DNA of 64,000 nt from a virus (taxonomy: Duplodnaviria; Caudoviricetes), in IMG/VR virus record IMGVR_UViG_3300037761_000289, positions 925 to 64,924 of that record; one strand, written 5' to 3'. Shown in pieces: positions 2,989 to 40,804 of this stretch; positions within the stretch are counted from its first letter, which is position 1; each line of letters begins with the position of its first letter. A program made the translations under genes and the position numbers. The notes beneath the pieces were generated by a model. The model was not told where the DNA came from and made no database searches. It was given only the letters and a program-made list of their open reading frames with translations.

Positions 2989-3002
2989 GTGGTGCCTGCC
3001 GT
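2711..3002. repeat. 28-bp direct repeat (2711-2738 and 2975-3002)
   Basis: TGGGGTC(C/G)GCTCATGTGGTGCCTGCCGT, one mismatch, 264 bp apart. Confidence 0.9.
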
Positions 3003-3950
3003 GTTCTGCGTTCGCCAGGCGGCGACGTGCTGGGGGCTGGAATGCAGCCGGCGGGCGATCTTGTCCGTGTCGGAGTCGAACGCGCCGTCGAACCAGGCGA
3101 CGAACTCGGCACCCTGCGCCTCCGCCCAGGCGAGCCCGGTCAGTGTCCAGGCGACCTTGCGGGCCGGGTCGTACAGCGGGTCACCGTCGGCGTCGGTGCC
3201 GGTGCGGTACTCGTGACAGCCGGTCTCGGTGATCGCGAAGCGACGACCGCTGGCCTTCGCCCATTCGACCTGCAACCGCATCCGGTAGGACAGGTCCCGC
3301 CACGGGTAGGTGTCGGCGCCGCCGTCATGCAGGTTGTAGGCGTCGAACCCGGCCATCATGCCGGCGGGGGCGAGGTCGTCGGCGGCGAAACCGAACTCCC
3401 GCTCGGTCAGCCCGTCGAAACACTGGGTACCGCCGAAGATGACCATCGCGGTCAGGTCGTCGCGGCCGGTGTCCCGCACGAGTTGACCGAAACGGGCGCT
3501 GGCGTCGTGGAACGCGGCCACGGTGAACAGCCTTTTCTTGATCTCACCTTCCGGTTCGTGCCACAGGCACAGGTAGTGGCGGTGGCCGTCGGTGGGGATG
3601 CTGTCGAGCAGGCCCCGCAGCTGTGCGACGGCTGCGGGTACACCGGTGGCGATGGCGGCGATGGCCGGTACGTCGCCGATGTACGGCTTGAAGCTCCAGG
3701 CGACGGACCGGTGCCCGACGTCGACTGCGGCCTTGGTGGTGTTCCACGCGGTCGGGAACTTGCCGGGGCTCTCGAACCGGCGGGCGATCCGCAACGGCCC
3801 GTAGCGGGTCTGGTAGGCGGCGAGCGCGGTGCCGCTGTCGACGTGGCTGCTGCCGAGCAGCATCGGCCGTCTGGTGACGGTGATGGTGTAGGTGAGTGTG
3901 CCGTCGAGGGTCAGGCCGTTGTCGGCGGCCCGCACGGTGATCGTAGGCAT
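2985..3950 (-). CDS. Glycoside hydrolase, clan GH-A (GH26-like TIM barrel)
   Basis: LCLWHEPE (acid/base Glu), GFDAYN, FAITETG (nucleophile Glu) and VAWFD motifs. Confidence 0.7.
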   Translation of the reverse strand: MPTITVRAADNGLTLDGTLTYTITVTRRPMLLGSSHVDSGTALAAYQTRYGPLRIARRFESPGKFPTAWNTTKAAVDVGHRSVAWSFKPYIGDVPAIAAIATGVPAAVAQLRGLLDSIPTDGHRHYLCLWHEPEGEIKKRLFTVAAFHDASARFGQLVRDTGRDDLTAMVIFGGTQCFDGLTEREFGFAADDLAPAGMMAGFDAYNLHDGGADTYPWRDLSYRMRLQVEWAKASGRRFAITETGCHEYRTGTDADGDPLYDPARKVAWTLTGLAWAEAQGAEFVAWFDGAFDSDTDKIARRLHSSPQHVAAWRTQNTAGTT

Positions 3951-3952
3951 GG

Positions 3953-4150
3953 TCAGTCTTCCCTGTTCGTGGATGGGTCGAGGATGAGGTGTCCGTACTT
4001 GCGGTTGATGAGCAGGTCTTCGACGCTGGTTCGGGTGGCGCGACGCAGCAGGAACCGCCGCCACCAGGAGTGCTCCGTGTAGATGTGCGCCCGTTGACCG
4101 TTCAGGCTCCACGTCCCGTAGTCGTAGCCGCAGATCGGGCAGCCTCTCAT
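3953..4150 (-). CDS. Small C2H2-type zinc-binding protein
   Basis: CPIC...HIYTEH. Confidence 0.6.
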   Translation of the reverse strand: MRGCPICGYDYGTWSLNGQRAHIYTEHSWWRRFLLRRATRTSVEDLLINRKYGHLILDPSTNRED

Positions 4151-4153
4151 CAG

Positions 4154-4405
4154 TCAGTCTCCCTTGTGGATGGTCGGGTGCAGCGGCGCGGCACCGGTCG
4201 ATAGACCGGTGGTGCGGCCACGACGGGCGGCCTTGGCCTTCTTTGCCGCGAGTCGGCGGGAGGCGCGGTTGCCGTTGGGGTCGTCGATGACATAGCCGAC
4301 CGGGATTTCAGTGCGTCGTACGCTCGGCATCTTCTTCACGTCGCGTCTCCCTTGTGGACTTAGACGGGTCGGGTCATCGGGGGTTCCGGTCCTTGACTTC
4401 CGCAC
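4154..4405 (-). CDS. Hypothetical basic protein
   Basis: ORF track; fills the gap between adjacent genes; start uncertain. Confidence 0.45.
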   Translation of the reverse strand: MRKSRTGTPDDPTRLSPQGRRDVKKMPSVRRTEIPVGYVIDDPNGNRASRRLAAKKAKAARRGRTTGLSTGAAPLHPTIHKGD

Positions 4406-4652
4406 CGACGATCCGGCCCGTGTAGGCGTGGATCTCGAAGTCCTCGCTGAGGTTCTTCTCGCCGGGGATGGTGACGATGGTCAACCCGACCTCCGGACGC
4501 ATCCATTCCTCGGTGACGACGTACAGGAAGTCCTCCGGGCTGGGCCCGTCGGCGTCGGCCCACTCGGCGGCGGACTGTGGGAGGTCGTCGGCGTAGACGC
4601 CGGGCACCTCGACGTGCAGTACGAGCGTCTTCGTGGGTTTGGGCTTGGTCAT
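4374..4652 (-). CDS. Hypothetical protein
   Basis: MTKPKPTKTLVLHVEVPGVYADDL...; GGAGG-type RBS upstream. Confidence 0.7.
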   Translation of the reverse strand: MTKPKPTKTLVLHVEVPGVYADDLPQSAAEWADADGPSPEDFLYVVTEEWMRPEVGLTIVTIPGEKNLSEDFEIHAYTGRIVGAEVKDRNPR

Positions 4653-4672
4653 CGGGAGGTCTCCTCCGTTGG

Positions 4673-4777
4673 TCAGGTGAGGTGGGCGGCGACGGTGGTG
4701 AGCAGGGCGACGGCGAGCAGGGCACCGGTGGCACACGCGGCCCCGGCGGCCAGCTCGACCAGCAGGCGACGGATCAT
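4673..4777 (-). CDS. Small single-TM peptide
   Basis: MIRRLLVELAAGAACATGALLAVALLTTVAAHLT; ATGA overlap. Confidence 0.5.
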   Translation of the reverse strand: MIRRLLVELAAGAACATGALLAVALLTTVAAHLT

Positions 4778-5388
4778 GGCGTCGCCGTGGGGTCGGCCGG
4801 GGCTCCCGGCCGGGCCAGCATGACGTGATCCCAGCACGCCCTGAGATGCCGGGCGTCGTCCAGCGCGTTGTGGGTTTTGCCAACCTGCTCCGGCAGCGAC
4901 GCGGCGGCACCGGGGTGGTGGAGGGTGATCTCCTGCTGGAGGTCGTTGGTCCACATTGGGATGCCCGGCGGCAGGTCGACCATGGGTCCCCACAGTTGGG
5001 CAAGGCACACGTGGTCGTAGGCGCCGTACCACGCCCACAACTCGGGCCAACCGGCCGCGTCGTCGAGGTCAACTCCGTGGCGCAGGAAGTCGCGCACCTC
5101 GGCCGCGATCGTCGCCTTGGCCTTGACCGCCGGGTTGTTGAAGTCGAACAGCCACCGCTTCGGCATGTGGTTGTTCCAGTCACCGGACGGCTTGGGCAGG
5201 TGCGGTACCACGTTGGCCATCAGCCACGGATGCCGGCGGACCCGCCTCCACGGGGCGTCCCGGTTGACGGCGTAGTACTCGCGGCCGTCATCGGCGACGA
5301 TCCCGATCGAGATCAGGTCGACGGTGCGGCCGTCCTCGATGAACTCGCAGTCGTACCAGCGGCGGCGTTTCATGATTGTCGCCTTCAT
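4774..5388 (-). CDS. 3'-5' exoribonuclease, Rv2179c/RNase AS-like (DEDD)
   Basis: WYDCEFIEDG, LISIGIV, WLMANVVPHL, ELWAWYGAYDHV and HNALDDARH motifs. Confidence 0.9.
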   Translation of the reverse strand: MKATIMKRRRWYDCEFIEDGRTVDLISIGIVADDGREYYAVNRDAPWRRVRRHPWLMANVVPHLPKPSGDWNNHMPKRWLFDFNNPAVKAKATIAAEVRDFLRHGVDLDDAAGWPELWAWYGAYDHVCLAQLWGPMVDLPPGIPMWTNDLQQEITLHHPGAAASLPEQVGKTHNALDDARHLRACWDHVMLARPGAPADPTATP

Positions 5389-5933: not shown

Positions 5934-6160
5934 CGTGCTCCCTTGCGGACGGTGCCGGCCCAGTCGCGGGGGTCGGGGTGCTCCGGCGGCAGCGGACAGC
6001 CGTCGCGGACCAGCCGGTGCACGGCGGTCACCGCCACCAGCTCGGCGTCCGCGCCGGGCCGCCGGGGCCGGAACGTCGCGTAGGTGATGGGTCGGCCGCC
6101 GGGCAGGAGCTGGTCGCCGACGAGGCGCCGGCAGCGGCAGACGTCGGTCGTGGCGTTCAC
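5930..6160 (-). CDS. Hypothetical protein
   Basis: GTG start overlaps the upstream stop; MNATTDVCRCRRL... Confidence 0.5.
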   Translation of the reverse strand: MNATTDVCRCRRLVGDQLLPGGRPITYATFRPRRPGADAELVAVTAVHRLVRDGCPLPPEHPDPRDWAGTVRKGAR

Positions 6161-9040: not shown

Positions 9041-9547
9041 TCATGCGGCAACCTTTGGCGTACGCATGCGTGAGACCACGAACTCATCGGGCAGGTCGTC
9101 GATGCGGTACGCGACGAAGTTGCTCGACCCGTCACCGTTGCGCCGTACCTCGCCGGGGTCGCGGCGTTTGTAGAGTTGGCGGTGGTGCCAGAGCCGGAAC
9201 GTGCTCAGGTCGCCGAGCATCCATGCGGCGAACTCGGCGGCGTCTGCGGACGCAAACCCGTAGAACAGGTAGTCGCCCCAGCCGGACAGCACCTTGGCCA
9301 GTTCGGTGTCTGCACCGCTCGGTCGGCTCGCGCGGATGGTGAACTGGTCGCCGTACGTGGCGAGGTATTCGTATCGACGGATCCGGCACGCGACGCGTAC
9401 CGTGTCCAGCCGCAACACGATCAGGTCGGTGTTGTGCTGCATGTCCTCGGCCGCCGGTGCCTCCGCGATCAGGTAGTTCGCGAGGATCCGTTTGATCTCG
9501 GGGATGAGGCCGCGTTGCCAGTCGAAGTCGCGCTCATACGCCGACAT
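9041..9547 (-). CDS. Putative PD-(D/E)XK-like endonuclease coupled to the MT-A70 methyltransferase
   Basis: EDMQHNTDLIVLRL...VACRIR...QFTIR...TELAKVLSGWGDYLFYGF; overlaps the MTase stop. The fold call is an inference. Confidence 0.5.
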   Translation of the reverse strand: MSAYERDFDWQRGLIPEIKRILANYLIAEAPAAEDMQHNTDLIVLRLDTVRVACRIRRYEYLATYGDQFTIRASRPSGADTELAKVLSGWGDYLFYGFASADAAEFAAWMLGDLSTFRLWHHRQLYKRRDPGEVRRNGDGSSNFVAYRIDDLPDEFVVSRMRTPKVAA

Positions 9548-10826
9548 CGATCACCTCGTTTCCCCAGGGCGTGAAGCCGTCGCGTGACGTGCGTGCGAAC
9601 ATCTCGATCCGTGGTTCTGGGCTGGCGGCGACCACCCGCTCGTAGAACACGTCGGGCTTACGGCTGTGGCCCTGTACCGGCGCGTCGAACGACAGCCGTA
9701 GTCCCAGTTGGCGTAGCGCCTGATTGCCGCGACGGCCGAACAGGACGTGCTCGGTGTCGTACATCCACGAGTAGGGGGTGATGCCGACGTTCTTCCGCCA
9801 CGTCATGACGCACTGGTAACTGAATCCCCACCCGGCCAACAGGTCCAGGCCGGCCGGTAGGAACTTGTGGGTGACCCAGAGGTAGATGTGGGCGTCGTCG
9901 AGGGTGCTCGTCTTGACGACATGACCGACGACGCATTGGATCGACCGGCAAGGCTTGTATCCGTCGGTGTAGCCGTCTTCCTCGCTCCACCACGCCCGGA
10001 AGCACGGTTCGTGGACTGGCTCGTACTCCTCGTGGAACTCGGTTCCAATGTCGCGGTTACCGACGATCGCGGGGTCCTGGCACTCGATCGGCATTGTCGG
10101 ATAGTCGAGCGCGACACCCTGGTTCGGACGCTCATCGCGTTCGATCTTTGCCATGGGCCACGGCGGGTCGATGACGAAGCAGTGGTACCAGCCGGTCGGC
10201 GGTGCGACTGGTTCGGCGACCGGTTCCGGTGTCCGGATGCGCGCCGCGAGCTTGACGGCTTCGCGGGTGGTCAGCGTCCCTTCGGCGGTGCCGTCCAGTG
10301 TGGCGAGTGCCTGCTGCGCCTGCTCGGCCTCGCGCTCATCCTTCGCCGCGACGAGCGTCGGGCGTCGGGCTGGACGCACTTTCCCGTCCGTACCCCACCG
10401 TGAGTCCGGCAACTTGCAAGTACTAGCAAGTTGTGGGTCGTTCAGAACCTGACCGACATACTGCCGACTGACTCCAGCCACCTGCGCGATCTCGTTCTGC
10501 GACAGCTCACCGACGCCGCTGGGCGTCACCCGCCGGGCAAGCATCACGATGTGCTCGCGCAGTTGCTCGCCCGAGAGGTGGCGGCGCGCGGTGTTGAGCG
10601 TCCGCGCGATCTCCCGCGCCTCGTCGTCGTCGGCCACGCTCACGACATCGACCCGGTACGTCACGCCCATCTTGTCGGCGATCCGGGCCCGGTGGTGGCC
10701 GTCGATGATCCGACCGCGCTGGTCGCGTACCACCGGGACGAGCACGCCGAACCGTTCGATGCTCGCGCGCAGCGCGTCTTCGATATGTGCCGGTAGCGCG
10801 TCGAACAGTTGCAGCGGTGTCGTCAT
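9534..10826 (-). CDS. ParB-N/HTH/MT-A70 adenine methyltransferase fusion
   Basis: LRASIERFGVLVPV...IIDGHHR (ParB); LSQNEIAQVAGVSRQYVGQVL (HTH); FVIDPPW, HIYLWVT, FSYQCVMTWRK, TEHVLFG, HSRKPDVFY and RIEMFAR (MT-A70). Confidence 0.92.
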   Translation of the reverse strand: MTTPLQLFDALPAHIEDALRASIERFGVLVPVVRDQRGRIIDGHHRARIADKMGVTYRVDVVSVADDDEAREIARTLNTARRHLSGEQLREHIVMLARRVTPSGVGELSQNEIAQVAGVSRQYVGQVLNDPQLASTCKLPDSRWGTDGKVRPARRPTLVAAKDEREAEQAQQALATLDGTAEGTLTTREAVKLAARIRTPEPVAEPVAPPTGWYHCFVIDPPWPMAKIERDERPNQGVALDYPTMPIECQDPAIVGNRDIGTEFHEEYEPVHEPCFRAWWSEEDGYTDGYKPCRSIQCVVGHVVKTSTLDDAHIYLWVTHKFLPAGLDLLAGWGFSYQCVMTWRKNVGITPYSWMYDTEHVLFGRRGNQALRQLGLRLSFDAPVQGHSRKPDVFYERVVAASPEPRIEMFARTSRDGFTPWGNEVIDVGV

Positions 10827-11626
10827 CAGGCTCCGTCCTTTCGTCGCTGGGTGTCGGCTGCGCGCCAGGACGGCAGCGCCTTGGTCTTGCGGCGGACGTT
10901 GTACATCTCGACGACGATCTCCGCCACGGCGCGGGTGACGGTGCCGCCGATGGTGTCGCGGAACGTGCGGGCCTTGCCGAGCAGCGCGGCCGGTGTGCCC
11001 GAGCGGGCGAGACGGTCGGTCAGTTCGCTGGCCTCAACGGCGATCCCGTACCGGGCGTAGACCAGGCCGACGCCCTCGACAAGCCGCCCGTCAACGGTCG
11101 CCGTGTCGTCGTGGCCCCACGCGCGGGTGAGTGTGGCGACGGCCTTGTCGAGGGCGGCGGGGTCGAGGCGATGGATCCGTTCAGCGGCGGCGACCGCGCC
11201 GAACGCCCCGCCGTGCGCGCTGAACATCACCTTCCAACCATGGGCGCTGATGATCCGGTCGATGTCGACGGCCACCGGGTCACCCTCGATGACACGTACC
11301 CGGAACAGGTCCAGTGCTTGCGGCTTCGCGGTGTTGTTCAGCAGCCTGAACAGGCGGGCCTCGTCCTCGATGGACAGGCCGGAAAAGATCCGGCACAGGA
11401 TCTTCTCCGTCTCGCCCCCGGCGAGCTTGACGGCGGAGACGCGGTGTTGGCCGTCGACGATGTGGTAGTTGCCGTTGGCCCGGTGGGACACGGTGACGAC
11501 GCCGAGCGCGTCGAGGTCCAGCGCCTCGGCGATCTTGTTGACGCGCCGGATGTCGAGGCCGCGCTGTACGTCCGGGTCGACGACGAGGGTGGACACGGCC
11601 AGTGGTCGCAGGTCAGGTTTGGCCAT
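10826..11626 (-). CDS. ParB-like protein (DUF6551-like)
   Basis: LVVDPDVQRGLD...GVVTVSHR...YHIVDGQHR...EARLFRLLN. Confidence 0.8.
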   Translation of the reverse strand: MAKPDLRPLAVSTLVVDPDVQRGLDIRRVNKIAEALDLDALGVVTVSHRANGNYHIVDGQHRVSAVKLAGGETEKILCRIFSGLSIEDEARLFRLLNNTAKPQALDLFRVRVIEGDPVAVDIDRIISAHGWKVMFSAHGGAFGAVAAAERIHRLDPAALDKAVATLTRAWGHDDTATVDGRLVEGVGLVYARYGIAVEASELTDRLARSGTPAALLGKARTFRDTIGGTVTRAVAEIVVEMYNVRRKTKALPSWRAADTQRRKDGA

Positions 11627-12464
11627 TGCTACGCTCCTTGAGTCGCTGGATGAGACCGGTGATGGTTCGCCGTGCGTCGCTGAGGCCGTCCACCCACTGG
11701 GCGGCCTCGTCGCTTGTGATGTCGGGGTGGATGTCCTGGATGCGGGCGAGGCCGTGGGCGATGCCGGACAGGCCGACGATGGCGCTGGGGATGGCTTTGC
11801 GCTGACCGCCAGCGTCGGTGATGGTCGTCTTGCGGTTGGGTCCTAGGCGCACGTCTCGCGTCCTGCGGACCTTGTCGTAGCTGGGCACGATCCTGCCGGT
11901 GGCGTTCATCTCGGCTAGCGCGGCCTGGGCGACGGCGCGGTCTTCGGGCGTGGCGGCTGGGTTGTCGGCGGCCCCGACGACGGCCCTGGCGCGGTGGTAG
12001 CTCATCGGCGACATGCCCAGCGCCCCGGCGACCACCTCACGGGTCTTCTCCAACTTTGTGTTCTGCGGATCACAAAGTTGGATTCCTAGGTCGCGCCGGG
12101 TTCCTTGACGTGCACGCGCCGTCGGTCGCTCCAACTTCTCCAGTTCACGGCCGAGGCGTACCAGCTCCTCCGGGGTCATCGCCTTGCGTTCGGTGTTCTC
12201 GTCCCGCTCCGTACGCAGCCGCTCGGCCGCGTCCCGCAGGTCGAGCGCGACCCGGACCTCGATCTCTGTCCAGCCGAGCAGCCGGGCGGCCTCCAGCCGA
12301 CGTTGACCGGCGATGAGTCGACCCGCCTCGGTGACGGTGATCGGGTTGATCAGGCCGACGTCGGCGAGGGACTTGGCGAGCGCGTCGAGGTTCCCGAGGT
12401 CCCGCCGGTGGCGGTCTGCTACCTGGATCGCCTCAATGTGCATCTTCGTCATGCGGTACCTCAT
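11613..12464 (-). CDS. ParB N-terminal domain protein with HTH
   Basis: IQVADRHRRDLGNLDALAKSLADVGLINPITV...LIAGQRRLEA...ERDENTERK...RQGTRRDL. Confidence 0.88.
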   Translation of the reverse strand: MRYRMTKMHIEAIQVADRHRRDLGNLDALAKSLADVGLINPITVTEAGRLIAGQRRLEAARLLGWTEIEVRVALDLRDAAERLRTERDENTERKAMTPEELVRLGRELEKLERPTARARQGTRRDLGIQLCDPQNTKLEKTREVVAGALGMSPMSYHRARAVVGAADNPAATPEDRAVAQAALAEMNATGRIVPSYDKVRRTRDVRLGPNRKTTITDAGGQRKAIPSAIVGLSGIAHGLARIQDIHPDITSDEAAQWVDGLSDARRTITGLIQRLKERSNGQT

Positions 12465-12483
12465 CCAACCTTCCCCGGTGCCA

Positions 12484-12708
12484 TCAGGCGGCGTCCTTTC
12501 GTCGTTGGGTGTCTTCCGCGCGGACGGCGCAGCAGATGCTCGGCATGCCGGCGGTGTCGCGGCCACGGCACCGGCAGCGCTGGCCACACGGCGGGTGGCA
12601 GTGGCACGGGTAGTGCCGGGTGGTGGGTGTGCCGGCGACCAGCCACACGCCGCGGGCCGCCCGGTGGTACGGGTGGCGGGGGTCGGCGGGCCCGGTCACG
12701 GCACCCAC
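12484..12708 (-). CDS. Small Cys/His-rich protein
   Basis: HYPCHCHPPCGQRCRC. Confidence 0.45.
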   Translation of the reverse strand: MGAVTGPADPRHPYHRAARGVWLVAGTPTTRHYPCHCHPPCGQRCRCRGRDTAGMPSICCAVRAEDTQRRKDAA

Positions 12709-13517: not shown

Positions 13518-13562
13518 TTGACACTGTACATACAGTCGGCTATGCTTCTGTACATACAGTCG
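13518..13562 (+). promoter_or_regulatory. Sigma70-type promoter TTGACA-N17-TATGCT with two copies of CTGTACATACAGTCG
   Basis: -35 at 13518-13523 and -10 at 13541-13546. Repeats at 13524-13538 and 13548-13562 each contain the dyad CTGTA-CA-TACAG. Confidence 0.85.
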
Positions 13563-13790: not shown

Positions 13791-13952
13791 ATGGCCAACA
13801 CCCCACACCGCACGGTGCGGCTCGACGACCCGCTGTGGGAGGCCGCCAAGACGTGCGCGGCGGCCGAGGGCCGCACCGTCACCGACGTGATAGAGGCGGC
13901 GCTGCGGCGGTACGTGCGGGCGAGGGGAATCAAGCTGCCACCCCCGGGGTGA
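13791..13952 (+). CDS. Ribbon-helix-helix (CopG/Arc-like) regulator, 53 aa
   Basis: Not in the ORF track; MANTPHRTVRLDDPLWEAAKTCAAAEGRTVTDVIEAALRRYVRARGIKLPPPG. Confidence 0.85.
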   Translation: MANTPHRTVRLDDPLWEAAKTCAAAEGRTVTDVIEAALRRYVRARGIKLPPPG

Positions 13953-14538
13953 GGTACGCCATCAACTGCCCACCGATGTGTCTCGTGTACGCCGGTGGGA
14001 TCGCCTGCCGCGCCTCGATCTTCGTCATCCACGTGCAGTCCATCGCGTCGGCGAACGCCCGCTCACCCTTGTGTACGAACGGCAGCAGCCGGCGGTTGCG
14101 GTAGCACCGGCACGGCGGCATCAGTTCGTACACGGACCAGTTGCCCGCCTGGAAGATCCGGTGCCGGCGGACCTGTAGACCGAACTGGGTGCCGCACAGC
14201 AGGTAGTCGGGGCGCAGCCGGTCGGCGGCCTCGGGAACGTTCTCGACCACCCACGGGACGTCGACCGTGGCGAGGCGGGCCAGTGTCGGGGTCAGCGTGT
14301 CCGGGTGGTCGTCCCTGTTGCCGCGCCACGCGGTCACCCGGGCCCACCGGAAACAGGTCGGGCTGGCGTGGATGGCGTCGTAGCCGTCGAGCGGGAACGT
14401 CAACGCGTCGGCCCGGTGGAACTCGTCGCCCGCGTACCGGGGTTGCGGTGCGGTGTCGACGCCGGTGACGTGCCAGCCGGCGAGCTGGTAGCCGCGGGCC
14501 GCGCCGCCCGCCCCCGAGAAGAGATCCAGCAGTTTCAC
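13930..14538 (-). CDS. DNA cytosine-5 methyltransferase (short actinophage type)
   Basis: LLDLFSGAGG (motif I), IHASPTC (motif IV variant) and WVVENV (motif VI). Confidence 0.85.
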   Translation of the reverse strand: MKLLDLFSGAGGAARGYQLAGWHVTGVDTAPQPRYAGDEFHRADALTFPLDGYDAIHASPTCFRWARVTAWRGNRDDHPDTLTPTLARLATVDVPWVVENVPEAADRLRPDYLLCGTQFGLQVRRHRIFQAGNWSVYELMPPCRCYRNRRLLPFVHKGERAFADAMDCTWMTKIEARQAIPPAYTRHIGGQLMAYLTPGVAA

Positions 14539-14720
14539 GACACCTCCCGACGGCGGGCCTCGTACTGGTCGTTGGTCTGCGACGTGAGGTGCCAGCCGCC
14601 GCGCGGGCACCGGTAGACGCGCAGCGGGATGTTCTGCCGGGACAGGCGGATCGCGGCGGCGACGGCCGAAATCCAGGTCCGGTGCCGCCGCTTACCCGCG
14701 CAGCACCTCGTCGCGGTCAC
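14535..14720 (-). CDS. Small conserved actinophage protein
   Basis: CAGKRRH...RVYRCPRGGWHLTSQ. Confidence 0.65.
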   Translation of the reverse strand: MTATRCCAGKRRHRTWISAVAAAIRLSRQNIPLRVYRCPRGGWHLTSQTNDQYEARRREVS

Positions 14721-14742: not shown

Positions 14743-15507
14743 TCATGGCGTACCTTTCGTGGTCGCCGCGCGCCACCCGGCGGAGTCTGGGGTCTCGCCG
14801 GGTGGCGGCGGGTCTAGGTGCGGCGCCACGTGTGCACCGCCGGGGTGCAGGTTCAGGACGTCCTGCGCGAGCCGCCGGGCGGCCAGCTCGCAGTACCGTT
14901 CGTCGAGTTCGACGCCGATGGCGCGGCGGCCAAGGTTGCGGGCGGCGACCAACGTGGAGCCGGAGCCGGCGAACGGGTCGGCGATGACACCGGGCGGGCA
15001 GGCCGAGATCAGCGTTTCCATGACGTCGACCGGCTTGGCGTGCGGGTGCGCGTAGCGGCCTTGTGGTTGCAGGCCCTGCGACCGGGCTCCAGTGGCCACG
15101 ATCGAACTTCGTCCGCCGAGCCCAGTGGCCCACGGGCCGATCAGGTACCACGCCTCGGCGTCTCGTCGGTAGCCGCCCATCGCGCCACGTGTACCGGCGT
15201 TGGGTGGCTTGCGGTAGATGCCGACGAGTACGGTCCCGCCCGGTGGGGCGAGCATCAGGTCGCCGAATATCACGGCGGGTCGACCACCCCATGCGGCCAA
15301 TACGCCGTCGCGGGTCTCGGTACCCGCGTCACCGACGATGCCGACGTGTGCGTCATTCGCTTGGTGCGGCGGCTTTAGGCGCCCCTGTCGCCAGCCGCGA
15401 CCGTACGGCGGGTCGGTCACGAGCACGTCGGCGGCCAGCCACTCGGTGATCTCCCGGCAGTCGCCGTGGTGCAACGTCACCGAGTCGTCGGCGTAGTACG
15501 GCGTCAC
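14743..15507 (-). CDS. DNA N6-adenine/N4-cytosine methyltransferase (beta class)
   Basis: LHHGDCRE, VTDPPYG, HPHAKPV, IADPFAGSGST and IGVELDERYC. Confidence 0.92.
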   Translation of the reverse strand: MTPYYADDSVTLHHGDCREITEWLAADVLVTDPPYGRGWRQGRLKPPHQANDAHVGIVGDAGTETRDGVLAAWGGRPAVIFGDLMLAPPGGTVLVGIYRKPPNAGTRGAMGGYRRDAEAWYLIGPWATGLGGRSSIVATGARSQGLQPQGRYAHPHAKPVDVMETLISACPPGVIADPFAGSGSTLVAARNLGRRAIGVELDERYCELAARRLAQDVLNLHPGGAHVAPHLDPPPPGETPDSAGWRAATTKGTP

Positions 15508-16382
15508 GCCGGGCCGCCGTCGGGGATCGGCGTGGTGTCGGGCCACGTGTCCGGCTCGTCGACGACCTGGCCGTCGACGTAGTCCGCAAGCGGCGCGTCG
15601 GTGCCCGCCGGGGTACCCGGCGCGGTGGCCACCCGATGCGCCTCGGCGACCGCGCGCAGCTGCTCCCGACGGAACTCGCTCGAGGTCGGCACCCACTTCT
15701 GCAGCTGCCGTACGGCGCTCTTGAGCCACATCGCGGCCTCGTGCGTCGTCCACGGCGAGAATTCGCTGCCGGCCGCCGCTGAGGACTTTTTGATGCGTTC
15801 GATGTCGGCGCGGTTCAGGACGACGACCTTCGACGTGGCGCCGTCCTTCATCCGCGCGTAGGCGTAGGCCAGACGCATCTGGCCCCGGTCGGCGGCGTCC
15901 CAGTCGATCTCGTGGAGGGGCACGTCGTCGCGGCCGGGCTGGTAGACGAACGTGTCGCCGGTGTGCACGACCTCGGCGATGACGGAGGACACGGCACCGG
16001 CCCGGTACATGAGCTCGATGTGGCCCTGGTAGCCGGTGATGCCCAGGATTTCCAGCCGGCCGCCGACCTTACGCGGTGTCAGGTAGTACTGTTCGGTGCC
16101 CGGTTCGAGGCCCTGCCGGGCGGCGTCGAGCAGGGCTGCGAGGAACGCGCCGGGGTTGTTCGCGGCGGCGACTTCCAGTTCGAACATGCCCCGGTGCGGT
16201 GACTTCGCGTCGGTGATCCGCTTGCCTTTCTTCAGCGCGCCCTCGGCGAGCCGGACCCACGTGGCGGGCTTGACGTGTGAGGGCAGGACGGACGCGAAGT
16301 CGGCGGAGTACTGCTTGATGAGCGCTCTCGGGCTGTTGCTGCTTTCGCGCTGGGCGACGGCGTTGGTGACGGTCTGGCTCAT
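15504..16382 (-). CDS. recT: RecT-family ssDNA annealing protein
   Basis: AARQGLEPG..QYYLTP, GITGYQGHIELMYR, FSPWTTHEAAMWLKSAVRQLQKWVP. Confidence 0.95.
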   Translation of the reverse strand: MSQTVTNAVAQRESSNSPRALIKQYSADFASVLPSHVKPATWVRLAEGALKKGKRITDAKSPHRGMFELEVAAANNPGAFLAALLDAARQGLEPGTEQYYLTPRKVGGRLEILGITGYQGHIELMYRAGAVSSVIAEVVHTGDTFVYQPGRDDVPLHEIDWDAADRGQMRLAYAYARMKDGATSKVVVLNRADIERIKKSSAAAGSEFSPWTTHEAAMWLKSAVRQLQKWVPTSSEFRREQLRAVAEAHRVATAPGTPAGTDAPLADYVDGQVVDEPDTWPDTTPIPDGGPA

Positions 16383-16902: not shown

Positions 16903-17928
16903 TTAGACGTAGCTGGTCGAGCGGCCGGGGTTGAGTCGGTCGATGGTGGTCGGGCCCACCTGATACGGCTTGCGGTCGTAGACGCTGCGGGACGCGACGA
17001 GCCGGCCGCCGCACACGGCGCGGCGGCCGTCGCCGATCAGTGCCCGTAGCCGCGCCTCGAACCGGTCGACGAGGGCGTCGGTGCGGGAGCGCAGAGCGCG
17101 GGCCCGCCGGTAGCCTTCGGCGAACTCGGCGGCGACCTCGACAGGCTCGGCGTCGCCGTCGATGTCCGGGTGCAGGCGTTTGAGTGCGGTGATGGTGGTG
17201 TGGTGGCCGTCGTCGACCGGAGGTGGTTCCCCGGCGGTGAGACGGTGCACGAACCGGCGTCCGTGTTCGCGCATGAGCAGCAGGTCGGCGCGGGCGGACG
17301 AGTCGACGGTGCCGGCGTAGCAGCGGAACCCGCCGGGTCCAACGGCGGGCATGTACCACTGGTCGACGCCGAGCACGTCGCACTGCCAGAGCACCTGGGC
17401 CCGGTAGTGCACGGGGATGTCGTCGGTGTCGGGCTCGCCCCAGCCGTCCCAGCCGTGCAGCGACGACTTGCACTCCAGCACGGCCAGCGATGGCCCGTCG
17501 GTGCGCCAGCCTTTGCAGTCGGGGCATGGCCTGACGAGCGGGTCGATGTGGTGTTCCTCGGTGCCGGATCCACCGCAGTACGGGCACGCCATGTACACCA
17601 GCCGGTCGGGGGTGGCCAGCTGCCACGGCCGGTCGGGGTGCGCGTACAGGCCGGCCGGGGCGACGACCACGTTCTCCGGCGGGTCGCATTCGGCCGTCCA
17701 CCAGTCGGCGACCGCCGGCTCCAGGTAGTGGCCGGCCACCATCTCCGGGGTGATCTCAAGCTTCCAGCCGTGGATCTTCCGCCAGTACAGCGAGAAGGCG
17801 GACTCGAACGGGGAGATGCCCATCACCACGGCGATCTCCGACGCGGACACGCCGGTGCGTCGCGCGTCGAGCCACTCCGGCGAGCGTGCGGCGACCGACC
17901 CGGCCGGGACAACCTCCACGGCGTTCAC
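16903..17928 (-). CDS. YqaJ-family (lambda exonuclease-like) recombinase with Zn-finger insertion
   Basis: EWLDARRTGVSASE, LATPDRL, VLECK and YRAQVLWQ; CPYCGGSG...CPDCKG is inserted between the catalytic D and ExK motifs. Confidence 0.92.
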   Translation of the reverse strand: MNAVEVVPAGSVAARSPEWLDARRTGVSASEIAVVMGISPFESAFSLYWRKIHGWKLEITPEMVAGHYLEPAVADWWTAECDPPENVVVAPAGLYAHPDRPWQLATPDRLVYMACPYCGGSGTEEHHIDPLVRPCPDCKGWRTDGPSLAVLECKSSLHGWDGWGEPDTDDIPVHYRAQVLWQCDVLGVDQWYMPAVGPGGFRCYAGTVDSSARADLLLMREHGRRFVHRLTAGEPPPVDDGHHTTITALKRLHPDIDGDAEPVEVAAEFAEGYRRARALRSRTDALVDRFEARLRALIGDGRRAVCGGRLVASRSVYDRKPYQVGPTTIDRLNPGRSTSYV

Positions 17929-18266
17929 GCCGCCACCAGCTCCCGGACCCCGGCGAACCCGTCGTGGTCCTGGAGGTCCAACTCGGTGACGCCGAGCCGT
18001 TTCAGCACGCTGACCCACCACGCGTCGATGAGTTGCAGCATGTCCCGTTCGTACGCGGCGCAGTCGGCGACCAGGGCCACGTACCGTTCCACGTCGGTGG
18101 TGAACTCGTCGTCGATGCGGACCTCGGTGGCGTGGTGGAGCTCGGCGGCGTACTCCTCCGTAGCGCCTACGTGGACGGGTTCGTGGTGGCCGTCGTCGAT
18201 CGCGGCGGTGAGGGTGATGACGAAGACGAGCAGCAGGGCGGCGGTGACGATCAGCGCGGCGGTCAT
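17925..18266 (-). CDS. Protein with N-terminal TM anchor
   Basis: MTAALIVTAALLLVFVITLTAAI. Confidence 0.65.
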   Translation of the reverse strand: MTAALIVTAALLLVFVITLTAAIDDGHHEPVHVGATEEYAAELHHATEVRIDDEFTTDVERYVALVADCAAYERDMLQLIDAWWVSVLKRLGVTELDLQDHDGFAGVRELVAA

Positions 18267-23454: not shown

Positions 23455-23692
23455 GCAATAGACACTAAGCCTCCGGAACCCTATTGCGCCATAGCAACAC
23501 ATCATCCGTTCGGCTGTTTCGTGGAGTACCCGAACGGACTACCGTTGCGCATATGCAACGTCAGGAGACGGGGAGGCGCGCGGCGGGCGTGCTGGGCAGG
23601 CGTGTGTTGCGGTGGCGCAACACTACGCGCCCCCTGCCGGAGCGGCCGGACCGGCCAGCAGGCGCGGGCCCCTATGGTGTGCGAATGCGCAA
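23445..23692. promoter_or_regulatory. Repressor/Cro operator array TTGC-N6-GCAA
   Basis: Perfect copies at 23445-23458, 23484-23497, 23545-23558 and 23607-23620; one-mismatch copy at 23679-23692. Confidence 0.85.
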
Positions 23693-24095
23693 CACCAAAG
23701 CCAGCCAAGGGGGCAACTGGGCGGCCTACGCCAAGGCCGCACGAGAGGCCGCGCATCTCTCCCAGTCCGAGTTCGCGCGCCGCATCGGCGTCGATCGCGT
23801 GACCGTGTACCGCTGGGAGACTGGCCGACAGAAGCCCGAGGACGGCGACATGGTCCGCCGCTTCGCCGAGGTGGCCGGCACGCCGCTGGACGAGTCTCTG
23901 TCCGCCGCCGGGCTCCGGCCCGACGACACGCGCATCCCGAGGACACCGACCCGCGACCCGGCGCTCGACCCCGACATCCTGGTCATCCTGCGGCGGCTGG
24001 CCGACCCGGACACACCCGAGGCCGAGAAGGTCGCCATCCGGGGCACCCTGCGGTACCTCGCCGAACTGGCCAACCAGTCACGGCGGCGCAACTAG
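23685..24095 (+). CDS. Immunity repressor (cI-like XRE HTH)
   Basis: WAAYAKAAREAAHLSQSEFARRIGVDRVTVYRWETGRQKP. Confidence 0.9.
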   Translation: MRNTKASQGGNWAAYAKAAREAAHLSQSEFARRIGVDRVTVYRWETGRQKPEDGDMVRRFAEVAGTPLDESLSAAGLRPDDTRIPRTPTRDPALDPDILVILRRLADPDTPEAEKVAIRGTLRYLAELANQSRRRN

Positions 24096-24189
24096 ATCGT
24101 TCAGCGGGCACCCGCCTAGACGGTTTCCGGTGCCGGCGATCAACAGCACACCCAGCCAGCAGCGGATTTGCTACAGCGGAAAACACCGG

Positions 24190-24239
24190 CCCGCCTTACA
24201 AGCGGGGGGTCGCTGGTTCGATCCCAGCCGTGCCCACCA
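24190..24239 (+). other. attP core = 3' half of tRNA-Val(TAC)
   Basis: Anticodon arm CCCGC-CTTACAA-GCGGG, T arm GCTGG-TTCGATC-CCAGC, acceptor strand ending ACCA. No D arm or adjacent 5' acceptor strand; lies directly upstream of the integrase. Confidence 0.88.
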
Positions 24240-24309
24240 CCAGCACAAACACAGATCCTTCCGGTGCGGGACTTGTGCTACACCGGTCACCGGTCCCACG
24301 CTTACGCAC

Positions 24310-25263
24310 ATGGCGCCCCGACTGCCCCGCCCCGACCCCGGCACATACCAGCCGATGATCGACTCGTTCGTGCTGAGCCTGCGCATCGACAACAAGTCCG
24401 CGCGCACCATCGCCGCCTACACCGACGCCGCCGCCTGGTTCGGCGGCTGGCTGCTGCACCACCGGCCCGGCGTGACCGGCTGGGCGGCCGTGTCCCGCGA
24501 CGAGCTCCAGGCGTTCTTCCTGTGGCTGCTCGACCAGCGCGACCCGGCCGGCCGCGGCTACGCGCCGGGCTACGTCAACCACGTCGCCCGCGGCCTCCAG
24601 CAGTTCTTCCGCTGGCACGCCGCCGAAGAGGACGTCGCCGACCCGTTCGACAAGTTCAAGGTGCCGCCGCCACCGAAACTCGGCAGCGGCCTGGTCCCGG
24701 TGGTCGAGGTGGAGGACCTGGCGCGGCTGGTCCACGACGCGGAGGCCGGCCGGGATTACGAGTCGCGCCGCGACGCCGCGATCCTGCGGCTGTACGCCTG
24801 CACCGGATGCCGACTGTCGGAACTGGCCCTGCTGCGGGTGGCCGACGTCAACGTGCCCAACCGGACGGTGACCGTCACCGGCAAGGGCGCCAAGGTCCGC
24901 CAGGTGCGCATCGACCAGAAGGCGGCACGGGCCCTGGACCGGTTCCTGAGGGTGCGGGCCCAGCACCGGGCCGCCGGGCTGCCCGCGCTGTGGATCGGTG
25001 TCCGCCGGCGGGAGGGCATGACCGCCAAGGGCGTCTACCGGATGATCGTCCGCCGCAGTACCCGGCTGGGTATCAGGATCCACCCGCACCAGCTCCGGCA
25101 CACGTTCGCGCACCGCTGGTTGGACGCGGGCGGCGCCGAGGGTGACCTGATGGAGTTGGCCGGCTGGGAGTCGCCGCAGATGCTGAGGCACTACGGCGCG
25201 TCGGCCCGGGCCGCGCGGGCGCGCCGCGCCTACGACCGGGTCAACGTGATGGGGGACGTCTAG
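24310..25263 (+). CDS. int: Tyrosine integrase
   Basis: LYACTGCRLSEL (R), TGKG (K), HPHQLRHTF (HxxR), AGW (W) and LRHYG (Y). Confidence 0.95.
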   Translation: MAPRLPRPDPGTYQPMIDSFVLSLRIDNKSARTIAAYTDAAAWFGGWLLHHRPGVTGWAAVSRDELQAFFLWLLDQRDPAGRGYAPGYVNHVARGLQQFFRWHAAEEDVADPFDKFKVPPPPKLGSGLVPVVEVEDLARLVHDAEAGRDYESRRDAAILRLYACTGCRLSELALLRVADVNVPNRTVTVTGKGAKVRQVRIDQKAARALDRFLRVRAQHRAAGLPALWIGVRRREGMTAKGVYRMIVRRSTRLGIRIHPHQLRHTFAHRWLDAGGAEGDLMELAGWESPQMLRHYGASARAARARRAYDRVNVMGDV

Positions 25264-40162: not shown

Positions 40163-40804
40163 CTAAGACTCGCCGCCGGCGCGCTTCCACGCCTCAACCG
40201 CGTTGGCGTCCAGGTCACCCTCCGCACCGGTGACCATCCGGTCGACGGACGTCTCGACCTGCGCCACGGTCCGGCCGAAGTTGGCGTGCATGTCCCGGCA
40301 CATGTCGCGGTAGTCGACCGCCTGACGGACGGTGAGGTCGGTGAGGTCGACCTTCCGGCCGTTGATCTTCAGGACCGGCTTGAAGCCGGGGATCTCGAAC
40401 AGCGGATCTTGTTCGTCTCCGGTCGCCGCGTCGGTCGCGAGCCCGACTTCCTCGATCGCGTCGACCTGATCGTCCGATTCATCGATTTCGACGGATGGGA
40501 AGCCAACGTTGATGATCGCCGACCAGGAGCCAAAGTCCGTCAGCGCCTGACGGACTTTGGTCTCCGTGTCATAGACCGTGGCCAATCTGATTCGACGCTG
40601 AATCTCTTGCTCCGAGATCTTGAAGCCAGACCGGAGCGCGTCCGCGATCAGGTCGGTGATCATGCCGTGCGGAAGTTGCTTCCGGCCGGCCTTGGCCTTC
40701 AGCAACTCCCGGCCGTAGTTCCACCGGTGCATGATGCCGCCGCGCTCGTCGGCGGCGATCCGCGTCTCAAGCTTCAGATACACGGACTGCTTGTCCTTGG
40801 CCAC
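40163..40804 (-). CDS. Putative DNA-binding protein (DUF1016-N/YhcG-N-like) inserted in the tail module
   Basis: RWNYGRELL...GFKISEQEIQRRIRLATVY...GSWSAII; own RBS; follows a terminator. Confidence 0.6.
   Translation of the reverse strand: MAKDKQSVYLKLETRIAADERGGIMHRWNYGRELLKAKAGRKQLPHGMITDLIADALRSGFKISEQEIQRRIRLATVYDTETKVRQALTDFGSWSAIINVGFPSVEIDESDDQVDAIEEVGLATDAATGDEQDPLFEIPGFKPVLKINGRKVDLTDLTVRQAVDYRDMCRDMHANFGRTVAQVETSVDRMVTGAEGDLDANAVEAWKRAGGES

Follow-up and report, generated by a model that had tools for sequence, protein, structure and literature searches.

Two families of ParB-like phage genes carry a palindrome at a fixed position within their coding sequence, and comparison of homologues has shown that its dyad symmetry is selected at the DNA level. 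The case described here is a temperate actinophage in which one such palindrome lies in an orphan ParB-like gene and another in a paralogous gene that ends in a DNA methyltransferase domain. On the evidence of sequence comparison and of analogy with known ParB-like systems, each palindrome is a candidate binding or loading site, comparable to parS or bisS, of the very protein encoded around it; we put the probability of this reading at roughly 60%. The encoded protein as reader of the site is something that we infer from the same comparisons.

The phage and its ParB-fold genes

The window, a stretch of 64,000 nucleotides, is almost the entire 64.9-kb IMG/VR virus record IMGVR_UViG_3300037761_000289 (positions 925 to 64,924), which is rated complete. 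The phage is a temperate actinophage of ~65 kb with an integrase (24130-25263, plus strand), a repressor (23484-24095, plus strand), and an early operon; a nucleotide search of cultured phages gave no match. The early operon runs leftward and includes a RecE-like gene (16903-18021), a RecT-like gene (15504-16382), and a DNA methyltransferase (phrog_363; 13930-14610). Then come three overlapping ParB-fold genes, all on the minus strand: an orphan ParB-like gene with ParB-N and HTH parts (11613-12452, 279 aa; hereafter ParB-HTH), a DUF6551 (DGQHR/DndB-like, ParB-fold) partner gene that overlaps its stop (10826-11626), and a paralogue of 430 aa that joins a ParB-like N-domain and an HTH to an MT-A70 DNA methyltransferase (9534-10826). 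Together with the methyltransferase at 13930-14610, the phage thus encodes at least two methylases.

The start of the ParB-HTH gene was placed at the ATG at 12452, within the open reading frame 11613-12587, with the help of homologues and the ribosome-binding site. The gene encodes a ParB-N domain of the CTPase fold (12093-12437, minus strand, with GQRR at aa 49-52 and ENTER at aa 85-89), a disordered linker, an HTH (TREVVAGALGMSPMSYHRARAVV, 11973-12044, minus strand), and a helical C-terminal domain. With Pfam ParB_N (PF02195), the protein scores 26.1 bits, just under the cut-off of 26.3, and a six-frame search reaches 28.4 bits, above it. The protein also matches phrog_12047 (E = 5e-31), and a profile of its family matches Noc/ParB chains (E = 3e-11). 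Residues G49, R51, R52, E85, N86, and R89, which make up GxRR and ENxxR, do not vary among 49 relatives; in the alignment with Noc/ParB they fall on the CTP-binding boxes, GERR and ENLQR in Noc. The AF2 model (pLDDT 86.6) has as its top Foldseek matches M. xanthus ParB-CTPgammaS, Noc, KorB (8qa9/8qa8), and pNOB8 ParB, over ~215-255 columns. By sequence, by motifs, and by its predicted fold, the protein belongs to the ParB/Srx CTPase-fold proteins. Only one segment of the model falls below a pLDDT of 50, namely the loop of aa 125-132 that the first palindrome encodes, and the linker peptide is hypervariable among relatives with 46-61% identity.

A DUF6551 gene lies downstream of the ParB-HTH gene in 18 of the 64 homologous loci searched. 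In Staphylococcus phage 85 and in M. abscessus prophages, a ParB-HTH gene and a second ParB-like gene of the DUF6551 type stand right behind a cro-like gene, which makes the pair a conserved early-lytic module. One viral contig (L004/L015, IMGVR_UViG_3300011432_000022) has, at 3946-4969, a ParB-HTH protein without the C-terminal domain, joined in frame to a DUF6551 (DGQHR) protein; this fusion supports a functional partnership of the two.

The palindrome in the ParB-HTH gene

Palindrome 1 (12049-12082, unstranded), the candidate cognate site of the ParB-HTH protein, has the form TCCAACTTTGTG-N10-CACAAAGTTGGA, with perfect arms of 12 bp at 12049-12060 and 12071-12082. These are slightly longer than the arms of the repeat CAACTTTGTG-N10-CACAAAGTTG at 12051-12080 that the first-pass annotation had reported, and which is indeed present. 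If the arms are taken as 15 nt with 4 nt between them, 14 of the 15 positions are paired. As that annotation had also said, the 30 nt at 12051-12080 are low in GC (13/30, or 43%, in a window of ~70%) and encode QLCDPQNTKL on the minus strand, flanked by GTRRDLG and by the HTH (TREVVAGALGMS), whose coding part begins about two codons past the palindrome. The full region encodes IQLCDPQNTKLE on the same strand, inside ORF 11613-12587. Rare synonymous codons make up 6 of its 12 codons: CAA has 14% of its synonymous set, CTT 4%, TGT 13%, GAT 11%, ACA 6%, and TTG 11%.

The site is single. No further copy of the half-site occurs anywhere in the window, and neither the window nor three related phage genomes hold an extra copy of the site. 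The outer pattern CAACTT-N(0-30)-AAGTTG is found in two places only, in the window as in the whole 64.9-kb virus record, with 0.00 expected from 100 shuffles: palindrome 1 and a second repeat at 10410-10433. Both had been noticed as sharing this outer pattern, and the second proves to lie at the homologous position of the paralogous ParB-like gene; its hexamers are 3 bp closer to the axis than those of palindrome 1. When the synonymous codons of the whole ParB-HTH gene are shuffled, 5 of 1000 trials give a repeat that scores as well (p ~0.006). Taken singly, palindrome 1 is modestly significant, and its real significance comes from the homologues.

A fixed position and a varying sequence

About 200 homologous loci were taken from viral, genome, and metagenome contigs and anchored on the ERDENT (ENxxR) motif. 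A first set of 61 non-redundant homologues and a replicate set of 15 were examined for linker repeats, with codon shuffles as controls. In the first set, 25 of the 61 have a perfect linker repeat of at least 9 bp, where the shuffles predict 1.09, and 18 have one of at least 12 bp, where they predict 0.11; the replicate set gives 10/15 at 9 bp or more against 0.5 expected. In the shuffled-codon control that the first-pass annotation had proposed, such repeats are therefore about 20-fold fewer than in the real homologues. The repeats are centred 120-180 nt downstream of ERDENT, and the remaining 30-nt bins of the gene have between 0 and 2 each. Throughout 373 kb of homologous loci, 22 of 58 strong repeats fall within the ~110-nt linker slot. 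With one or two mismatches allowed, a dyad is seen at the linker position in nearly all homologues; Staphylococcus phage 85 and a few actinobacterial homologues have no clear dyad there.

The sequences of the linker palindromes differ between lineages. Examples are CGGTTCCGGTC-ccga-GACCGGAACCG in locus L003, AACGGTGGAAAA|TTTTCCACCATT in Pseudomonas phage phiAH14a, and CAAGACGGAGAA|TTCTCCGTCTTG in Vibrio phage eugene; the longest reach 16+16 bp (L011) and 18+18 bp (L019 and L116). Changes in one arm are compensated in the other, as in the double change that distinguishes ACCTTCGGGAAA..TTTCCCGAAGGT (L092) from ACCATCGGGAAA..TTTCCCGATGGT (L104). The core GGNAA-N-TTNCC is read in three frames (0, 2, and 4), with GKFP, GETFP, and GKVST as the resulting peptides; GTTCCGGAAA is found in two reading frames, and so is CTTGGTG. 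The latter lies 4.5-5 nt from the axis in five distant homologues (L032, L172, L176, L138, and L024), and CTTTGTG of palindrome 1 lies 5 nt from its axis. Comparison of these alignments indicates that what is conserved at the linker position is the DNA, not the peptide. The centre measures 0-2 nt in 39 of 48 dyads, within an overall range of 0-10 nt. The palindrome accompanies the ParB-N+HTH module whatever the fusion or neighbour (DUF6551, MT-A70, or N6_N4 methylase) and whatever the host phylum.

The first-pass annotation had offered two explanations of palindrome 1: a parS-like site inside the protein's own gene, or a small palindromic cassette that is swapped. The former gains support, the linker DNA being hypervariable among homologues yet nearly always dyad-symmetric, with compensatory changes, and the swapped cassette is not needed.

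Two further comparisons were set aside. Mismatch types (A.C 16 versus G.T 3 on the sense strand) resembled the signature of an antisense hairpin; this candidate was dropped, as A.G (9) and A.A (5) are also common and the bias is that of an A-rich, T-poor coding strand. Covariation between residues of the HTH recognition helix and bases of the palindrome amounts to a lineage-level correlation that is confounded by phylogeny, and L003 and L007 provide a counter-example, having the same palindrome despite several changes in the helix.

Prophages of the M. abscessus type have a second, intergenic copy 2.4 kb upstream of the in-gene palindrome, and the centres of the two copies co-vary, with TCTATAGA in both or TCTACAGA in both. 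In L005 (MW584164.1), two convergent genes close to the immunity region have a perfect 30-bp palindrome between them, at ~3000-3029. The central 12 bp match the in-gene ParB palindrome (record coordinates 3599-3610 and 5984-5995), and they co-vary with it in a related provirus.

The palindrome in the methylase gene

Palindrome 2 (10410-10433, unstranded) reads CAACTTGCTAGT|ACTTGCAAGTTG, with 11 of 12 pairs matched and without a spacer. It encodes QLASTCKL, with the use of rare codons, immediately behind the HTH part of the methylase gene (LSQNEIAQVAGVSRQYVGQVLN, 10434-10505, minus strand). The MT-A70 assignment (PF05063) rests on 43.2 bits against a cut-off of 23.9, and the DPPW motif is seen as VIDPPWP. 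When the ParB-HTH protein and the methylase are aligned as paralogues, both palindromes fall at the equivalent place, 1.6 kb apart in the genome. By codon shuffle alone, palindrome 2 is not significant (p 0.29), and we accept it because of the comparative evidence only.

A search of viral contigs with peptide patterns yielded no close relatives of the methylase gene; eight homologues with DNA were obtained via protein database and contig look-ups. In all eight, a palindrome stands at the same residues (aa 129-132 onward), with compensatory changes, so that the repeat at 10410 is kept as a palindrome in the family of its own gene. In seven of the eight it is perfect, with arms of 11-13 bp and no spacer, and in seven of the eight it outranks every other repeat of the gene. 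The outer hexamers form dialects (CAACTT, CAGGTT, and CAACAT), and the inner triplets are variable. The axis falls between codons, so that the constraint becomes visible in the protein: the octapeptides QLASTCKL, ELISTYKL, QVITSDNL, QVGTSANL, QHISTYML, and QVMSTHNL have codons that pair as reverse complements. Reverse-complement-compatible codon pairs number 59 of 64, as compared with 35.5 +/- 3.3 and a maximum of 47 in column shuffles.

In three of the homologues (P0184, P0186, and P0201), an N6_N4 methylase (PF01555) replaces MT-A70, which points to a catalytic domain that is exchanged behind a constant targeting module. Two loci are without the ParB-HTH/DUF6551 pair upstream. From this and from the domain swap it follows that palindrome 2 goes with the ParB-like+HTH module at the N-terminal end of its own gene. 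At the positions of ENxxR and GxRR, the methylase paralogue has LNTAR and DGHHR, respectively, which makes a CTP-clamp mechanism less likely for the methylase.

What the palindromes may be

All of the comparative evidence for a cognate site would fit equally well a self-contained autoregulatory operator, at which the encoded protein acts as a roadblock inside its own reading frame, with neither clamp loading nor spreading. There is one site per genome, within the gene; the glutamate of ENxxR is missing from the methylase paralogue; and autoregulation of methylase levels is common. We nevertheless consider such an operator unlikely, as GxRR and ENxxR are invariant throughout the ParB-HTH clade, which suggests that a nucleotide switch is in use, and as spreading from the site is common to the relatives ParB, Noc, KorB, and BisD. 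Shape rather than sequence might also be what is read, with a cruciform or single-strand hairpin serving as an origin, nicking, or priming signal, possibly for the "ParB-like nuclease" domain itself. The arms are long and perfect (up to 36 bp in all), the centres are often A+T-rich, and symmetry is kept while the sequence varies freely; moreover, lambda ori sits in the linker-coding part of gene O, and a "replication protein" gene follows the ParB-like gene in Pseudomonas phage phiAH14a. Inner cores and half-site motifs nevertheless persist over distant lineages and reading frames, which argues for the reading of sequence, and here two different palindromes stand in two paralogous genes 1.6 kb from each other. 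The cumulative GC skew of the window turns near 27-28 kb, away from 12 kb, which is weak evidence against an origin at this place. Altogether, a structural signal seems to us quite improbable.

An mRNA hairpin governing translation, pausing, or stability of the ParB transcript would have to explain why complementarity runs, in those 39 of 48 dyads, through a centre of 0-2 nt whose bases could not pair in a hairpin. The sense RNA of palindrome 1 does fold as expected (-25.3 kcal/mol, z = -2.9), and Caulobacter parB is regulated by mRNA structure, though at its 5' end (PMC13371061). However, the sense-strand mismatches given above bear no wobble signature and reflect the composition of the coding strand, and no terminator or promoter was found at palindrome 1, nor a T-run or terminator after it. 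We hold this explanation to be very unlikely. The centre, frame, and core data favour, as far as sequence comparison can tell, a duplex site that is read by its sequence over an RNA or cruciform element. Least probable of all would be a functionless by-product in a linker that tolerates it, be it left by template-switch quasi-palindrome correction or by a dispersed palindromic element of which it is a patch. The hypervariability and disorder of the linker are as such an origin would have them, but the position is fixed across phyla and in two gene families, the enrichment over shuffles is ~20-fold or greater, rare codons are maintained, and the palindrome is unique in each genome tested and thus not a dispersed element.

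The reading that we prefer, a cognate site of the encoded protein, has points against it as well. The predicted HTH recognition helix is rather conserved, whereas the outer arms are highly divergent; with 12-18 bp, the arms are longer than one HTH half-site needs; and a centre spacing of 0-10 nt is awkward for a rigid dimer. With a single site in the window and in the three phage genomes, there is no network of sites that would point to a trans-acting reader.

Comparison with known systems

KorB, a structural match of our model, has 12 identical 13-bp operators spread over plasmid RK2, whereas the phage has one site per genome and has it inside a gene. What the phage system would share with KorB-OB (with KorA) is a clamp of the ParB family that acts on palindromic operators and serves regulation instead of segregation (PMC11790492).

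The likeness to ParB-parS lies in a ParB-N CTPase fold followed by an HTH, in a palindromic site, and in the conserved GxRR and ENxxR. Furthermore, parS-359 lies inside the parB (spo0J) gene of B. subtilis and so, too, in the protein's own gene (PMC4442127). The differences are equally plain. No ParA partner was found by AAA_31 match in the 64.9-kb record, where 14/14 control genomes were positive, and the LG[KR]GL ParA-interaction motif is absent from the translated ParB-HTH protein. Palindrome 1 is unrelated to the canonical 16-bp parS consensus TGTTNCACGTGAAACA, and the sites of the phage family are 24-36 bp long, vary between close relatives, and stand at a fixed linker-coding place throughout the family.

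BisD is a ParB-like CTP clamp that activates the transfer genes of ICEclc; its site bisS, an 11-N1-11 palindrome inside ICEclc genes, is bound by it and stimulates its CTP hydrolysis (PMC12409273). The phage likewise has an orphan ParB-like protein on a mobile element, here a temperate phage, and a long palindrome within coding sequence, which is the arrangement of the BisD/KorB type. In contrast, bisS lies in other genes (inrR and ssb) and not in bisD, and BisD carries an activator domain and works with a partner, BisC; for neither was an equivalent identified in the phage.

Lambda offers a parallel, since its DNA-binding O protein, too, has its cis site (ori) within the DNA that encodes the protein's own flexible linker; the fold of lambda O is a different one, and ori-lambda consists of iterons and an A+T-rich region rather than one palindrome.

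The same architectures as ours, a ParB fold with an MT-A70 or N6_N4 methylase as well as DUF6551 fusions, are catalogued in phages in a 2025 fold survey, whose passages on methyltransferase, phage, parS, DUF6551, and DndB describe these proteins as prophage-enriched and as binding CTP or ATP, and name no DNA site (PMC12704722). To the first-pass annotation the system looked uncharacterised. As a principle it is not wholly so, parS-359 and bisS being precedents; a full-text literature search found no paper on a position-fixed, lineage-specific palindrome inside phage ParB-like genes throughout a family.

Other repeats in the window and in homologous loci

Some further repeats are worth recording. 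At 13524-13562 of the window there are two exact 15-bp direct repeats (CTGTACATACAGTCG) with starts 24 bp apart, each with a near-palindrome CTGTA-NN-TACAG. They overlap a promoter-like TTGACA-17-TATGCT (plus strand, 13518-13546) upstream of small Cys-rich ORFs and are probably an operator pair for a regulator. At 40530-40560, a perfect inverted repeat with 14-bp arms, CCAAAGTCCGTCAG-N3-CTGACGGACTTTGG, lies inside ORF 40163-40804 (213 aa, unannotated, no Pfam match) and may be another embedded site.

Among the homologous loci, L107 (Gemmata sp. IIL30 scaffold HG799465.1) has at ~4890-4923 a loxP-like ATAACTTCGTATA-gcatgcat-TATACGAAGTTAT, with a spacer that we take to be one base off canonical loxP. 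Two different 18+18-bp perfect palindromes are found in L104/L107 ~3 kb downstream of the ParB-like gene, between +2961 and +3206 from the anchor.

A proposed mechanism and its implications

By analogy with ParB-parS and BisD-bisS, a dimer of the ParB-HTH protein would recognise palindrome 1 through its two HTH motifs, close there as a nucleotide-bound clamp, and spread over the phage genome; the ParB-HTH-MT-A70 methylase would dock likewise at palindrome 2. The site sits in DNA that encodes a disordered linker, a part whose peptide can vary freely. Reader and site would then be passed on together in mosaic phage genomes and could drift into lineage-specific "dialects." The role downstream might be the regulation of early genes, as with BisD and KorB, or the targeting of DNA-modifying enzymes. 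The latter is suggested by the many methylase fusions and by the existence of ParB-dependent phage dioxygenases (PMC13229309).

A bolder version, which we regard as speculative and rather unlikely, would have ParB-fold proteins, methyltransferase fusions included, act as self-addressed enzymes that load on their own phage DNA only, slide along it, and methylate or regulate in cis. Site and reading head would co-diversify into private dialects that stop co-infecting or resident phages from borrowing one another's proteins.

Orphan proteins of the ParB-CTPase fold are abundant in phages and other mobile elements. Should the embedded palindrome prove to be the cognate site, binding, clamp loading, and cis-targeted methylation would become testable, and cultured phages are at hand in Pseudomonas phiAH14a, Vibrio eugene 12A10, and the M. 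abscessus prophages. For annotators, there is a warning here that a patch of coding DNA with rare codons and low GC can be a functional site, and the case illustrates the general rule that cis sites can hide in DNA coding for disordered linkers. The ParB-methyltransferase and DUF6551 fusions in those passages of the fold survey (PMC12704722) would gain candidate sites and, if the embedded palindromes are indeed cognate sites, the targets of hundreds of such proteins would be readable from the sequences of their own genes.
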